The notes: generated from the sequence alone by a model not told the origin. A stretch of DNA of 61,529 bases from an uncultured Gammaproteobacteria bacterium (GCA_964607795.1 CAZSLA010000001.1:1-61529), one strand, 5' to 3'; shown: positions 50,004-61,529, numbered from the stretch's first letter. Numbers and translations are program-made.

Positions 50004-53000
50004 TCATGGGCTACCTTCATCCGGGCCAAATCTTACCGCACCTTGGTTTATCACCTTCCTAATTTGGGTGGGGGAGAGGGCATAATTATAAATCCTTACA
50101 TCATCGATATTTCCCTCCATATATCCCACACCCTCAATTCTCCCGATATCTAGATCAGTGGCATTTAAGCCCGCTGTTGTAGTTACTGCCACATGCTGCC
50201 ATGAACCGGTAGCTAAAGTTGTTGTTAGCTTTCCGTTTACATAAATTGTTTCTGTCCCAAAACCGTTTGCTGTTACTGTTCCGTTGTTTACCCACACATA
50301 ATCGGTTCCATTTAAATCAATAAAATATTCTGTAGATGTTGTTGGTTTAACCCAGAAAGAAACAGTAGATACAATAGAGGGGCCGCTCCCTACATCTACA
50401 AAATCATTCGTTCCATCAAAACCAAGACTTCCATTAAATTTTCCCGTTGTCCCGTCATTCCACATCTCAGTGGCGTCTCCGCTGTTGCATGTTCCTACGG
50501 TGTCATTATCACCTGAAGTATCACCTGGAATTATTGTTCCATTATAACCGTTTCCTGAGGAATCGTATGCCGTTGTACCTTGACATTCATCAAAGAGATA
50601 GTGTGCAATCGGTTTGCCGCGATTGTAATCGTAGGCGATCTGGGCGGGAGTACGGGCATAGTTGTAAATTTTGACTTCATCAATGAGCCCGTTAAAGCGA
50701 TATGCTCCACCGTAGAGATTAGCAATAGCAAGTCTTGAATCATTGGTTCCGATGGCAGTAGAATAATCTCCTGATGCCACAAGGGTGCCGTTGACATAAA
50801 TTTTAACTTCGTCAGTTCCACCTGCATTTTTGTCATAAGTGAAGGCAACATGAGCCCATTTATTATTGGAAAAAACATCATCTGAAGTATACGCGCGTTC
50901 GGCGTTATTGATCCAAACGCTTAGGTTGTTTGTCCCCGTTCCTCTAGAAGAGAATGTCCAGGCTGTTTGATAGCTTTTATCAACAATACGGGTATACTTT
51001 CCTTGATTTGCTCTGGATTTTATCCATGCCTCAACCGTGATGGCGTCAGTAATATCCAGAACAGAACCAGTTGTGTCCTGATACCATGCATATTCGGAAG
51101 TTCCGTCAAAATCAAGACAGCTGCCAAATTTACACGGAACCCAGTCTGAATTATCAATATAAACTAAAGTCATGTTAAGTCCATTGCCTGAGTGGTCGTA
51201 AGTATATGAGGAACCTGTGTTTTCATCCATAGGATAATAAGCCACAGGTGGGTTCCCAGCTCCATCTGTTAAATTATTCGCCTCATTTTGGCCGGTGCCT
51301 AAGTTTATGGCTGAACCTGCGTTCATATCTATTTTAATTTGGTCTTCTGTCAGTGCAGAGGAGTAGATTTTGACTTCATCGATATAACCGGCGAAGGCAG
51401 TGTTAGTAGCGACAGTATCATCAGCATCATATTCACCAACAGTAAAATCACTTGCTTTATCCTCAAGCCCGAGAAAAGATCCATTGGTACTATTTTGTCC
51501 TACAAATTTCCCATCAACATACAATTTTAAATCTCCCATTGCTCCCGCAGTCCCGCCATTAAAGGTAAAAGCCACATGATACCAGGTATTTTGTGATATC
51601 TGATCATTTGCTTGGGAGGCAGTAATGGCTTGTGAAGCGGACTCATCATATATCTGTACTCCAAAATTACCTGTTGTATCAGCATCATCATTCTCCAGAT
51701 ATAATCTGTAATTTGCCATGTTATTTGTATCATCCCATTTGGCGATAATAGCATCTTTTTCGGAAGAACCAGGCATGGTAGTAACATATACCCACGCACT
51801 ACCTGAAAAAGGCTCATTCCCATTAAAATCAACCTCACTATCATTTGCTGTTGCTATGCTTACTTCTTCTCCTGCAGCATCCCACAATAAACATCCATTA
51901 ACTTTACACTTAGATTCAGTTTTCCAAGTTAAGTTACTATCTACTATTCCATTTTCGTTTCCAATAGAATCATATGCTGTTGTTCCATACTGTTCATCAA
52001 ATTTCCAGTATAGTACTTGGCTACCTATTGGGGAACCTCCTGTTGGGTGGCCGGCGTTCATGTCTTCAACAATTTGCTGTGGAGTGCGGGCATAGTTATA
52101 TATTTTAAATTCATCAATATAGCCGTCAAAACGGTTTGCAGAGCCGCCACCAACCAAAATATTGTCTGTATCAGTATTGGGGGAACCGTCACCGGCTGTG
52201 CTTGATCCTCTATTGATTCCATTTATCCACAAAGTTAGCTCGTCATCGTCATCATCTTCATAGGTCATGCAGATATGGTTCCATGTATTGACAGGAATTG
52301 CGTTTGAAACAACCAGGCTAGCATCAGTAGCCGCCAGATCAATTGTTCCTTGAATATCAAGATAGCCCATTTGTTGTTTGAGATTTTGAGTTTGTATATA
52401 GATCTCCGAGCCTTTCCTGAATACTTGTCCATAACCATTCTGTCCATCAGATCGAGCATAAATCCAAGCACAATATGTAACGGCATTTTTCAGGCCCTCG
52501 TTCATATCAATAAGACTGGTATTTGTTATGGTGGCATAATTTTCAGATGCATCGAAGTTTAATGCGCTGCCGAATCTTCCGGGAACCCAGTCGTTTTGGG
52601 TTATGCTAGTAAGTGTGGCATTAAGCCCATTACCAGATTTGTCGTAAGAAGTTGAAGTGCCAGAATTTTCATCGAATGGAAGGTGGAGTACTGGTCCTGG
52701 AGCCCAATTATAAAGATCCTTAACCTCTTTTTCTGATAGGGCACGGTTGTAGATACGGACTTCGTCAACGTTGCCTTTAAGGCTCTCATCTGGTCTGCCC
52801 CCAATTTTTATAGTTTCTCCTGTACTAACATTTCTAGTGGTGGTACCCTTGCCCATCTGTTGGCCATCTAGAAATATTATTACTGCATTACCATCATGCG
52901 TAACTGTTACCAAATGCCATCGATTTTCTCCAACTATCGCTGGTGTAGATATATAAGGGCCATTATGATATATCCACTCAAATTTGTTCTGAGAGCCTGC

Positions 53001-59671: not shown

Positions 59672-61529
59672 TTCTTTTCCACTATCCACCAGTTAAATGC
59701 CAGCTCCGCGGTATCGCTAGAGGGGATTTCAACCCTAAACCCGCTGCCAGCTATCACCTCGGTGACTGACAAAGTCTTGGTGGTTTTCGATTTGGGAGTC
59801 ACAAACACCAGGGCGTCCCCCGTGACCATGGGCGTGGACACAAACACGCTGGTGGCGCCTGCCGCGACCCGGCTTGTGCCGGCTGAGGCCCCGGCTACGC
59901 TGTATTTCTCGGCGCTGATTTCTTTGGCGCTCACTTTGCCTTCGGTGTCTATGGTTACAAGGCCACCCATGAATTCAACATTACCCAATGCCAAGGGTTG
60001 GATTTTAAGTACGCCCAGGGCATCCATGGAGTTTTCCATGGGGTCAAACATCATGCCACCCACGGTAAGATCCCCGGTGATCGTCGTATCCCCGAGAAGC
60101 GTATCGCCCAAGACCGTCAGGTCTGTGGTACGGATTTTATCAATATTGAGGTGGGATTCACCTGTATCCTCATCCATGGTAAAGTACAGGCTTGCATCCC
60201 CGGATGCCAGGCCCGTGGTACCCGCGGCCTCATTATTCCTGGCATAGGCATCATACAAAACGCTTATTTTGGTGTGTTTGATGCCATCAATTTTTGTGTC
60301 CACACTGTCCCAGTCTACAGCTTCGGCCGCGCGGGCAACCACGTAGCTCACCGGAAATTTCCCCGTGTCGTGCATGGCGTGGCCCGGGGTATCCGAGGAA
60401 ATCAAAAAGTCCCCTGGAGCCAGATCTGCTCCATTATCCACCACCCACAGCTCACCATTTCCTACGGCCATAATAAGATGCGGGTTGACATCTGTAGTTT
60501 CCTCACTTGGATTAAGAGGGGATAAATAGCTCCCCAGGGCCGCCGGATCATTGGCAAATGAAGTCTGGGTAATGCCATAGACAATTTCGGCATCCGGCCG
60601 ACCACCAAAGCGGCGGTTGATGCCCGTCATTCTCACCAGGCGGCCTTTTTCGATTTCTTCATCTGTCCAGGCATAGTGTGAACCAGTGAAGGCATTATAG
60701 CTTACGGTATTTCCGGAAACCGAGATGCTGCCTTCCGCGACGCCATCCTGCTCGAGGCTTACGATGGTCCCGTCCGAGCCCGTGCGGTTCAACGTAGCTA
60801 CCGTGCCTGCCGTAGTAAATAGCGACCCCCCGGTCGCCTCTACATTGAGTTTGCCCGCGTTATAGGTTTTCAAAGTCAGGTTATTGGATTCATAACTTTC
60901 CCCGGCCTCAATGGTTAACGGTCCCAGGGATTCTATTTTGCCCGCCGTTTGATTTGTAAAAACAATATCGTACGCTACTGCCACATCTCCGGCTGCATTA
61001 AAGGCTGTTGGTAAATCAAAAGTGGCAAGGCTATCGCTAAGGGTTAAAGCAGGAGTACCGTTTGGTGCAAACACGATGGATCCGTCACTGCCAATAGTGA
61101 AGTTTGTGTATGAATCACTGTCATATGCAAGCCTTAGCTGAGTGGTTGTACCCAAAACCTGGAGCTTGGCGCCTGGTGCAGTGGTACCGATTCCTACCAT
61201 TCCATCATTAAACCCGACTGTTACATCAGTGCCGGAAAGGTTTACATTCCAGGCAATTGTAGCCGCACTGCCATCTCCCCAGGTGATGTCGTTTAGCTCT
61301 GTTGAGTCAAAATCAAAGTCCACTGTGCCTGTTGTGTTGGTAGCAGTAATCCCCAGGCCTCCTGTGAATGCGGCGGTTGAGCCAGAACCAATATTAGTTT
61401 GAGTAGTGCCGTCTGACAGGATCCAGGCTCCATAGTTATCCAGTCCAGAGATGTCCGTGGCCAACTCTTCCAAGGCCTCCTGGACTGTGGTACCAGTCAC
61501 TCCTGTAATCCCTGTGTTGTCTACCCCAA
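59668..61529 (-). CDS. tail-fibre-like Gly/Thr/Ser-rich beta-repeat surface protein (partial, N-terminus off window)
   Basis: Frame open to the window edge; MVGIGTTAPGAKLQV-type motif and long G/T/S-rich repeats as seen in phage tail-fibre-like proteins; GC-rich. Confidence 0.7.
   Translation of the reverse strand, partial: GVDNTGITGVTGTTVQEALEELATDISGLDNYGAWILSDGTTQTNIGSGSTAAFTGGLGITATNTTGTVDFDFDSTELNDITWGDGSAATIAWNVNLSGTDVTVGFNDGMVGIGTTAPGAKLQVLGTTTQLRLAYDSDSYTNFTIGSDGSIVFAPNGTPALTLSDSLATFDLPTAFNAAGDVAVAYDIVFTNQTAGKIESLGPLTIEAGESYESNNLTLKTYNAGKLNVEATGGSLFTTAGTVATLNRTGSDGTIVSLEQDGVAEGSISVSGNTVSYNAFTGSHYAWTDEEIEKGRLVRMTGINRRFGGRPDAEIVYGITQTSFANDPAALGSYLSPLNPSEETTDVNPHLIMAVGNGELWVVDNGADLAPGDFLISSDTPGHAMHDTGKFPVSYVVARAAEAVDWDSVDTKIDGIKHTKISVLYDAYARNNEAAGTTGLASGDASLYFTMDEDTGESHLNIDKIRTTDLTVLGDTLLGDTTITGDLTVGGMMFDPMENSMDALGVLKIQPLALGNVEFMGGLVTIDTEGKVSAKEISAEKYSVAGASAGTSRVAAGATSVFVSTPMVTGDALVFVTPKSKTTKTLSVTEVIAGSGFRVEIPSSDTAELAFNWWIVEKK

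Follow-up and report, generated by a model that had tools for sequence, protein, structure and literature searches.

The locus studied here raises the question of why two small genes for four-helix-bundle (4HB) proteins stand between giant surface-protein genes in one co-directional array. The window, that is, the whole stretch of 61,529 nucleotides that was analysed (GCA_964607795.1, CAZSLA010000001.1:1-61529, from an uncultured Gammaproteobacteria bacterium), is the entire 61.5-kb contig C1 of a 96%-complete genome of 813 kb, labelled G000 in our comparisons; the small size of this genome, its split rRNA operon, its rRNA insertions, and its nearest database names mark it as one of the Candidate Phyla Radiation (CPR)/Patescibacteria type. 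The array consists of five genes, all on the minus strand, in the order P0005 (fibre-like), P0004 (4HB with a suffix domain), P0003 (giant DUF2341-LamG), P0002 (plain 4HB), and P0001 (giant DUF2341-LamG), with successive spacers of 7, 14, 35, and 53 nt. A first-pass annotation, made from the sequence alone, had already described the order and sizes of the genes, their spacers, and their domains, all of which our gene map and profile searches bear out; it had also compared the array with a diversity-generating retroelement (DGR) and proposed the 4HB proteins as recurrent partners of the giants. Giant adhesins of CPR organisms are thought to mediate host attachment.

Our study indicates that two hairpin-armed 4HB cassettes of the rRNA intervening-sequence (IVS) type have probably colonised junctions between the cistrons of an operon for surface adhesins. 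Each cassette consists of one 4HB open reading frame (ORF) between inverted tandem arrays, with a period of 7 nt in the plain type (P0002) and 9 nt in the suffix type (P0004), and its arms extend as far as the stop codon of the gene before it and the start codon of the gene after it. For the plain cassette, an ORF-less sister hairpin exists in the genome's own 23S rRNA, at helix 25. Cassettes and solo hairpins are scattered over unrelated operons of related genomes, where they have been gained or lost between congeners and are decaying.

Two 4HB genes enclosed by inverted periodic arrays

The plain cassette occupies 458 nt (54589-55046; the features are listed in Table 1). Its two arms, of 37 nt each, are built from heptamers, inverted with respect to each other, and 81% complementary, and they enclose the whole P0002 ORF in the predicted minimum-free-energy and centroid structures alike. 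A genome-wide scan for period-7 arrays turned up a single further site, an insertion of ~130 nt in the 23S rRNA gene that folds as one long hairpin (dG -56.4, z -7.3). This hairpin is homologous to both arms of the P0002 cassette: it matches the 5' arm at 21/24 positions and aligns with the 3' arm over 63 nt with a score of 43, compared with 17.5+-3.4 for shuffles. It is the only solo (ORF-less) copy in G000: elsewhere in the genome the heptamer unit gave nothing above background, the 3 weaker matches being equalled by 3 reversed-control hits. Both ORF-bearing copies, P0002 and P0004, lie between protein-coding genes and not within an rRNA helix, and the relative G038 carries a hairpin of its own cassette unit inside its 16S gene. 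The genome encodes an RNase III gene (C18:2107-2502). As for the rRNA genes themselves, a second, larger insertion in the 23S gene (11336-15101) holds a LAGLIDADG_1 homing-endonuclease ORF (13797-14210, 4e-23), and a stretch of 5.5 kb with protein-coding and tRNA genes separates the 16S gene (4390-5872) from the 23S gene.

Around P0004, the motif GTCNTATA/TATANGAC recurs at a 9-nt phase: over the start codon, twice within the ORF, and in inverted orientation past the stop codon. Eight of the genome's 59 GTCNTATA sites fall within 620 nt at this gene (Poisson 4e-16), and the fold of the cassette has z = -5.9. The SYKTNKSY stretch encoded by the first internal array is a loop in the structural model and an indel site in the family alignment, and the second internal array contains the palindrome GTCTTATAAGAC. 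The 3' array covers the ribosome-binding region and the first ~10 codons of P0003 (MKHIRHIKNK), and its translation gives the LamG protein a basic N-terminal tail; in the contig L114, the LamG protein likewise has a basic, array-encoded N-terminus (MSHIRLIRHIRL...). A decayed 4HB-suffix copy was also observed on contig C13 (5405-5826, locus L007) between lysS-like and HD/serS genes; its N-terminal part is missing, its frame is broken, and it has another 9-mer unit, of the CTTAGGTAAG type.

The 4HB proteins

In Pfam and NCBIfam searches, P0002 and P0004 match 4HB families only, with no HUH/Y1 transposase or other nuclease motif. P0002 exceeds the cut-offs of TIGR02436 (66.4 bits vs 24) and PF05635 (47.2 bits vs 33.8) and matches PDB 2RLD in sequence at 2.5e-10. 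P0004 reaches 34.3 bits against the same TIGR02436 cut-off of 24, and its residues 142-186 form a TIGR04258 suffix domain (75.7 bits vs a cut-off of 40). The AlphaFold2 (AF2) model of P0004 is a helical bundle with extra helices (pLDDT 85, pTM 0.80), whose best Foldseek matches are the PF05635 structures 2GSC and 2RLD, with a target-normalised TM-score of at most 0.87. The GC content at third codon positions is 0.70 in P0004, compared with 0.32-0.38 in the LamG genes. The suffix subfamily comprises at least 8,000 candidates at E<1e-10, and the P0004 family more than 120 clusters at 65-75% identity, other phyla included. To our knowledge, PF05635 is a very large orphan family in which only Avd and the untranslated S23p of Coxiella have been studied.

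Cassettes and solo arrays in related genomes

The cassette design is general. The flanks of 23 suffix loci from a 401-genome sample of the phylum have a match frequency of 0.388 at lag 9 and 0.379 at lag 18, while most other lags (lag 1 excepted) lie at ~0.29-0.30 and the controls at 0.29 for lag 9; the flanks of 28 plain loci reach 0.45 at lag 7 and 0.395 at lag 14, vs 0.26 in controls. Within plain loci, the complementarity between the 5' and 3' arms averages 31.0, compared with 16.7+-3.3 for shuffles and 17.5 in direct orientation, and the terminal inverted-arm design is present in ~22/28 relatives. The arm units are lineage-specific and fall into classes, each common to loci whose arms are each other's best cross-match. 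Three relatives (G038, G040, and G052) contain 19-29 array sites each, vs 0-6 for the reversed control; only 4 of the 30 sites fetched from them have a 4HB gene nearby, most of these arrays being solo hairpins between co-directional genes and some being internally deleted cassettes. No paper describing this cassette design was found in a literature search on TIGR02436, PF05635, or TIGR04258 with arrays.

Both types of 4HB gene occur in highly varied neighbourhoods: next to them are genes for tRNA synthetases, IF-2, RNase J, uracil-DNA glycosylase (UDG), ClpB, DNA ligase, type IV secretion system pilins, and Wzy-like proteins, as well as dnaK and dnaJ on either side of one 4HB gene. Differences between congeners were found at single sites. 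In genus g18, two genomes (G118 and G018) have a cassette between a fibre-like and a Wzy-like gene, and a third (G397) has both genes with a 186-nt spacer and no cassette. The fibre/LamG junction is occupied by the suffix cassette in G000, whereas the cassette at this site in its congener G001 is of the plain 4HB type and has another unit. Two contigs from different samples, L114 and L115, are 100% identical across 9,950 nt.

Several individual loci illustrate the range of settings. In two relatives (L024 and L026), a plain 4HB cassette with arms of the AATGCTAA type lies between dnaK and dnaJ. Two 4HB-suffix genes 68-69% identical to P0004 were found within type I CRISPR-Cas operons (L118, 5001-5594; L119, 5001-5570), exactly between cas7/cas3 and cas4-cas1-cas2, where they overlap or abut the cas4 start. 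At L152 (G052:C6:26752), a P0005-like gene (...FKWWIIE*) is followed, directly past its stop codon, by a solo gene-less heptamer array, at the junction that 4HB cassettes occupy in other genomes. Heptamer arrays of the G001 unit (CTACCAN) also occur in frame in ordinary ORFs (L154, L157, and L158), including an ArgRS-like one, to which they add short peptide repeats of the TNYQL type.

Comparison with known elements

The first PF05635 ORFs came to light within intervening sequences of 23S rRNA, and others have been recorded in CPR rRNA insertions. The Coxiella IVS, which RNase III cuts, is 428-444 nt long and combines a 28-bp terminal stem with the S23p ORF (PMC4990558). The ORF-bearing 23S IVSs of Coxiella burnetii (helix 45) and Leptospira resemble the cassettes in protein family (S23p/PF05635), and the Coxiella element is of a similar size class to the 458-nt P0002 element (PMC4990558). 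Terminal inverted repeats around the ORF and a sporadic distribution suggesting horizontal transfer are also shared, and the ORF-less sister of the P0002 cassette occupies the classical helix-25 site of its own 23S. The differences lie in the placement and construction of the ORF-bearing elements: the cassettes described here stand between protein-coding genes of an mRNA operon, their arms consist of units repeated in tandem at a constant 7 or 9 nt and overlap the stop and start codons of the neighbours, and the suffix cassette has additional arrays within its own ORF.

A second likeness is to the repetitive extragenic palindromic (REP) sequences, REPINs, and their associated tyrosine transposases (RAYTs). 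Here too, short repeats are dispersed between co-directional genes, a few protein genes are flanked by inverted copies of the repeat, the unit sequence covaries with the protein lineage, and solos far outnumber gene-bearing copies in G038, G040, and G052. In contrast to RAYTs, the protein is a helical bundle of ~120-190 aa that lacks HUH/Y1 and other nuclease motifs, the repeats form periodic arrays, and G000 has one solo copy only. The bacterial Avd proteins (bAvd, PF22296/NF033474) belong to the same four-helix-bundle superfamily and are likewise small basic proteins encoded beside large surface or receptor-binding genes; they differ from the present case in that this locus has no reverse transcriptase (RT), template repeat (TR), or variable repeat (VR), the true Avd of the genome is encoded on contig C27, and P0002 and P0004 miss the Avd models. 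Finally, the heptameric intergenic repeats described from Xanthomonas and Nostoc (Rehm et al. 2015, PMC4692102) also have 7-nt units in ~4 copies; they are transcribed and are concentrated between co-directional ORFs, no more than 50 bp from a stop or start codon. These repeats are G-rich and are interpreted as quadruplex-forming, and the abstract and section list of that report name no protein family, whereas the arrays found in our study occur in inverted pairs around a 4HB gene.

Association of suffix cassettes with giant exported proteins

For the suffix type, the association with giants is genuine. LamG arrays of relatives often hold 4HB genes (G001, G002, G041, G044, and G052), and 9/27 suffix loci of other genomes in the phylum sample have a LamG/DUF2341 or P0005-like gene no more than 1.5 kb away (binomial 2e-9 against a roughly estimated background of ~2%). 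Plain loci of other genomes show no such enrichment (2/28 near LamG; Fisher p = 0.02 against the suffix type). The order fibre-like, 4HB-suffix, LamG, in some cases continued by 4HB and LamG, is found in G001, G002, G052, L113, L114/115, and L117; in these relatives, the LamG genes are only ~25-31% identical to those of the window, and the 4HB-suffix proteins are 63-75% identical in G052 and L113-L117 and only 41-48% in G001 and G002. The contig L114 repeats the whole architecture of the window, with a LamG protein ~30% identical and a 4HB-suffix protein 71% identical. Among seven contexts of the closest P0004 homologues, selected solely by the length of their contigs, four have the suffix gene between a giant and a LamG gene or after a Peptidase_S74 fibre protein.

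On a tree of 34 suffix proteins, the label "surface-adjacent" needs 8 changes, at least 3 of which are forced by well-supported branches; several lineages have therefore acquired or retained the surface association. The gene after a suffix cassette opens with a hydrophobic helix at 15/21 loci, vs a genome background of 36% (p = 0.001), and the gene after a plain cassette does so at 4/19 loci. The proposal of a recurrent 4HB partner for giant genes thus holds in part: the suffix-type neighbourhood recurs in G001, G002, G052, and L113-L117, but the 4HB genes are not specific to LamG giants, and the plain type is not enriched near them; that annotation had not noticed the repeats that enclose each 4HB gene. 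Other small genes of a selfish type were observed between the giants of three LamG arrays (L069 of G052, L071 of G044, and L074 of G041); they are RAYT-like or encode GxxExxY/PDDEXK_3, GIY-YIG, or DUF3800 proteins.

These associations could also be explained if the 4HB-suffix protein, and perhaps the plain one, were a cytoplasmic accessory of giant exported proteins, i.e., a chaperone, a targeting factor, or a translational regulator of the downstream LamG gene, with the arrays as operator sites on the mRNA. Such a partnership, the foremost alternative, would account for the order giant, 4HB-suffix, LamG (with or without a further 4HB and LamG) in at least 8 genomes or contigs whose flanking genes are only 25-37% identical, for the 7-nt spacer that follows the fibre-like stop codon in G000, G018, G118, L113, and L117, for the 4HB stop codon that overlaps or abuts the LamG start, for the excess of hydrophobic-helix starts downstream, and for the very strong conservation of the suffix protein. 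We consider it unlikely, given that proteins 68-69% identical to P0004 are encoded between cas7/cas3 and cas4 of type I CRISPR-Cas operons, that other 4HB genes adjoin tRNA synthetases, IF-2, RNase J, UDG, ClpB, and DNA ligase, that the fibre-LamG arrays of G017 and G035 have no 4HB gene, that different 4HB types occupy one junction in the congeners G000 and G001, and that the plain type is unbiased both in its proximity to LamG genes and in the N-terminal helices of the genes that follow it. Regarding the accessory functions proposed in the first-pass annotation, RNA processing is nearer to the evidence than a chaperone.

It is important to note that several points weigh against the reading of these elements as colonising cassettes. 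The fibre, 4HB-suffix, LamG layout is kept while the flanks drop to ~30% identity, as a functional partnership would look, and the suffix protein, at 65-75% identity across phyla, is better conserved than a decaying passenger would have to be, a hint of a cellular function. We saw no movement, no recombinase, and no target-site duplication, and the filled site of G118 and G018 and the empty site of G397 could equally be explained by deletion. The cassette unit was not found in the 23S genes of G040 and G052, and the array sites of G001 are not in rRNA. The ratio of G-U to A-C mismatches in the arms is 1.39 in plain and 0.93 in suffix loci, vs 1.24 and 0.92 expected from base composition; judged by these sequences, there is no excess of G-U over A-C, and selection on a sense-strand RNA stem is not demonstrated. 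Cutting of the arms by RNase III would be pure analogy. As for the neighbourhood statistics, the ~2% adjacency background is uncounted, and the N-terminal-helix test rests on a crude hydrophobicity rule.

Chance proximity and the retroelement question

It could further be supposed that P0002 and P0004 are ordinary resident small genes in AT-rich, repeat-bearing spacers, close to the giants by chance. CPR intergenic DNA is indeed AT-rich and repeat-prone, and the counts of promoter- and terminator-like sites in the region do not clearly exceed those of shuffles: promoter-like sites show no excess over chance, terminator-like sites only a marginal one (17 vs 10.8+-3.4), and an intrinsic terminator scan found no terminator-like site inside any of the four spacers. 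This explanation is nevertheless highly improbable, for inverted arms and fixed periods are confined to 4HB flanks and do not appear in control windows, the heptamer unit is shared only with the 23S hairpin, and a third of the foreign suffix loci (9/27) stand beside giants, vs ~2% expected.

The cassettes do not represent the Avd part of a DGR. The sole RVT_1 match of the genome lies on contig C27 (5052-5723), and none was found on C1. The region C27:4860-7841 (locus L006) is a complete DGR, the only one of the genome, in which 15/17 mismatches between TR and VR fall at a template A, and besides its own VR this TR has no other match in the genome (E<0.09). No TR/VR-like repeat pair was found in 44000-61529, where the only long repeats are paralogous LamG modules. 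The absence of an RT and of a TR/VR pair at the locus, as first described, thus stands, and the proviso that an RT just beyond position 61529 would make this an ordinary DGR is inapplicable, as the window ends with the contig. The DGR reading of the array is ruled out by the whole-genome search for RT, TR, and VR, the only DGR being self-sufficient on C27. A remaining variant, in which the 4HB genes are Avd paralogues acting in trans with the C27 RT or relics of a lost local DGR, can draw on the common superfamily of 4HB and Avd proteins, on the weak matches of a relative's plain 4HB to bAvd and DivGenRetAVD, and on the presence of an active-looking DGR in the genome, but it is the least credible of all, since that DGR comes with an Avd of its own and only one VR, the cassettes also occur in relatives and in operons without a nearby RT, and P0002 and P0004 fail to reach the Avd-specific DivGenRetAVD model.

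Proposed mechanism and implications

Colonisation by IVS-type cassettes would account for these observations as follows. In an operon of giant exported adhesin-like proteins, with one fibre-like and two DUF2341-LamG genes, two intercistronic junctions would have been taken independently by PF05635 cassettes, each a gene in a hairpin. The 4HB protein would recognise its own periodic arrays on DNA or RNA, probably as an oligomer, like Avd and 2RLD, and this recognition may maintain or spread the element in the manner of REP/RAYT systems, although without a nuclease domain. By analogy with rRNA IVSs, the paired arms may form an RNase III-type stem that would cut or insulate the polycistronic transcript and still allow translation of the gene downstream. 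The surplus of suffix cassettes before giants may arise from the reading of the 3' array as a short basic N-terminal tail (HIR/HIK), which would be harmless ahead of a signal-anchor helix, and also from the tolerance to insertions that fast-evolving, horizontally exchanged surface-gene arrays may have.

In one genome, an intact, heptamer-armed 4HB gene occurs together with a 23S hairpin that has the same unit but no gene, and with a second 4HB subfamily that has nonamer arrays, a combination that gives the PF05635 family a concrete and testable candidate for a nucleic-acid target. It suggests that rRNA IVSs are only the rRNA-borne fraction of a far wider class of intercistronic elements. The suffix cassettes lie preferentially at the heads of giant adhesin genes and encode their N-terminal tails, because of which they may influence adhesin expression. 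A bolder and rather doubtful extension would be that PF05635 4HB proteins are trans-acting readers of periodic arrays, forming a nuclease-free, REPIN/RAYT-like system that colonises rRNA helices and cistron boundaries of operons, and that the CPR suffix lineage has been co-opted at the fibre-LamG junction, where its 3' array gives the giant its start region and basic tail. If this were true, 4HB binding to the arrays, or a change in array copy number, would gate the amount of each adhesin.

The giant and fibre-like proteins and other features

Both LamG giants match Laminin_G_3 over 6 stretches (4.7e-128 in P0001 and 2e-111 in P0003) and DUF2341 (1.4e-8 and 1e-7, respectively), and N-terminal hydrophobic helices are evident in their translations ahead of these modules. 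Their C-termini had been described as about 45% identical; the low identity holds, with a measured value of 41-43%. MshQ of the MSHA type IV pilus is a giant of the same DUF2341-LamG build, with an N-terminal anchor helix, DUF2341, and several Laminin_G_3 domains, and is a presumed surface adhesin; the array in the window differs in having no adjacent pilus genes. A match of the DUF2341-LamG protein to the NCBIfam model TafC, at 174 bits, is far under the 410-bit cut-off.

For P0005, the initial label "tail-fibre-like" gains no support from sequence families, all profile and sequence searches (Pfam, NCBIfam, PHROGs, and PDB) being empty, and moderate support from predicted structure. In its AF2 model, beta domains at aa 250-432 and 547-616 are well predicted, and Foldseek matches them with tailspike C-domains, an H-type lectin, and a phage decoration protein (E 4e-4 to 1e-2). 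Residues 236-432 form a conserved beta module of ~200 aa (pLDDT 94-98) with no Pfam model. The protein ends with a C-terminal beta-sandwich (...FNWWIVEKK*) and is 63% identical to its orthologue in G001. The module at aa 236-432 was also observed with 53% identity in a thaumarchaeal protein, and it is found in many phyla, in fusions with YadA-head, collagen, Kelch, or H-lectin domains.

Table 1. Positions of the genes, arrays, and rRNA insertion in the window and of the DGR components on contig C27.
Feature	Position	Strand	Remarks
P0005, fibre-like	59668-61527	-	5' end/N-terminus lost at contig end
P0004, 189 aa, 4HB + suffix domain	59091-59660	-	TIGR04258 2e-21, TIGR02436 2e-8
P0003, 1341 aa, giant signal-anchored surface protein	55051-59076	-	DUF2341 + 6x Laminin_G_3
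P0002, 123 aa, plain 4HB	54644-55015	-	TIGR02436 2e-18, PF05635 2.8e-12
P0001, 1528 aa, giant signal-anchored surface protein	50004-54590	-	DUF2341 + 6x Laminin_G_3
P0004, 5' nonamer array	59643-59678	-	covers P0005 stop codon, 7-nt spacer, and P0004 start codon
P0004, internal nonamer array 1	59505-59544	-	encodes SYKTNKSY (aa 41-48)
P0004, internal nonamer array 2	59250-59285	-	holds the palindrome, encodes NKSYKTY
P0004, 3' nonamer array, inverted	59048-59092	-	Tandem Repeats Finder period 9/18
P0002, 5' arm, heptamer units	55010-55046	-	covers P0002 start codon
P0002, 3' arm, AATTTAC x3.7	54589-54625	-	ends over P0001 start codon
ORF-less hairpin insertion in 23S rRNA gene	11957-12085	+	model position ~583, helix-25 IVS site
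DGR target gene, 308 aa	C27 6915-7841	-	no Pfam hit
DGR avd, 120 aa	C27 6485-6847	-	
DGR TR	C27 5982-6112		same strand as target and avd
DGR VR	C27 6907-7037		in target gene
DGR RT	C27 4860-5993	+	opposite strand, convergent with target, avd, and TR

A nucleoside-diphosphate-kinase gene adjoins the LamG array in the window (47761-48327) and also in the distant contig L117 (9780-10403), which hints at a conserved synteny around the LamG array.

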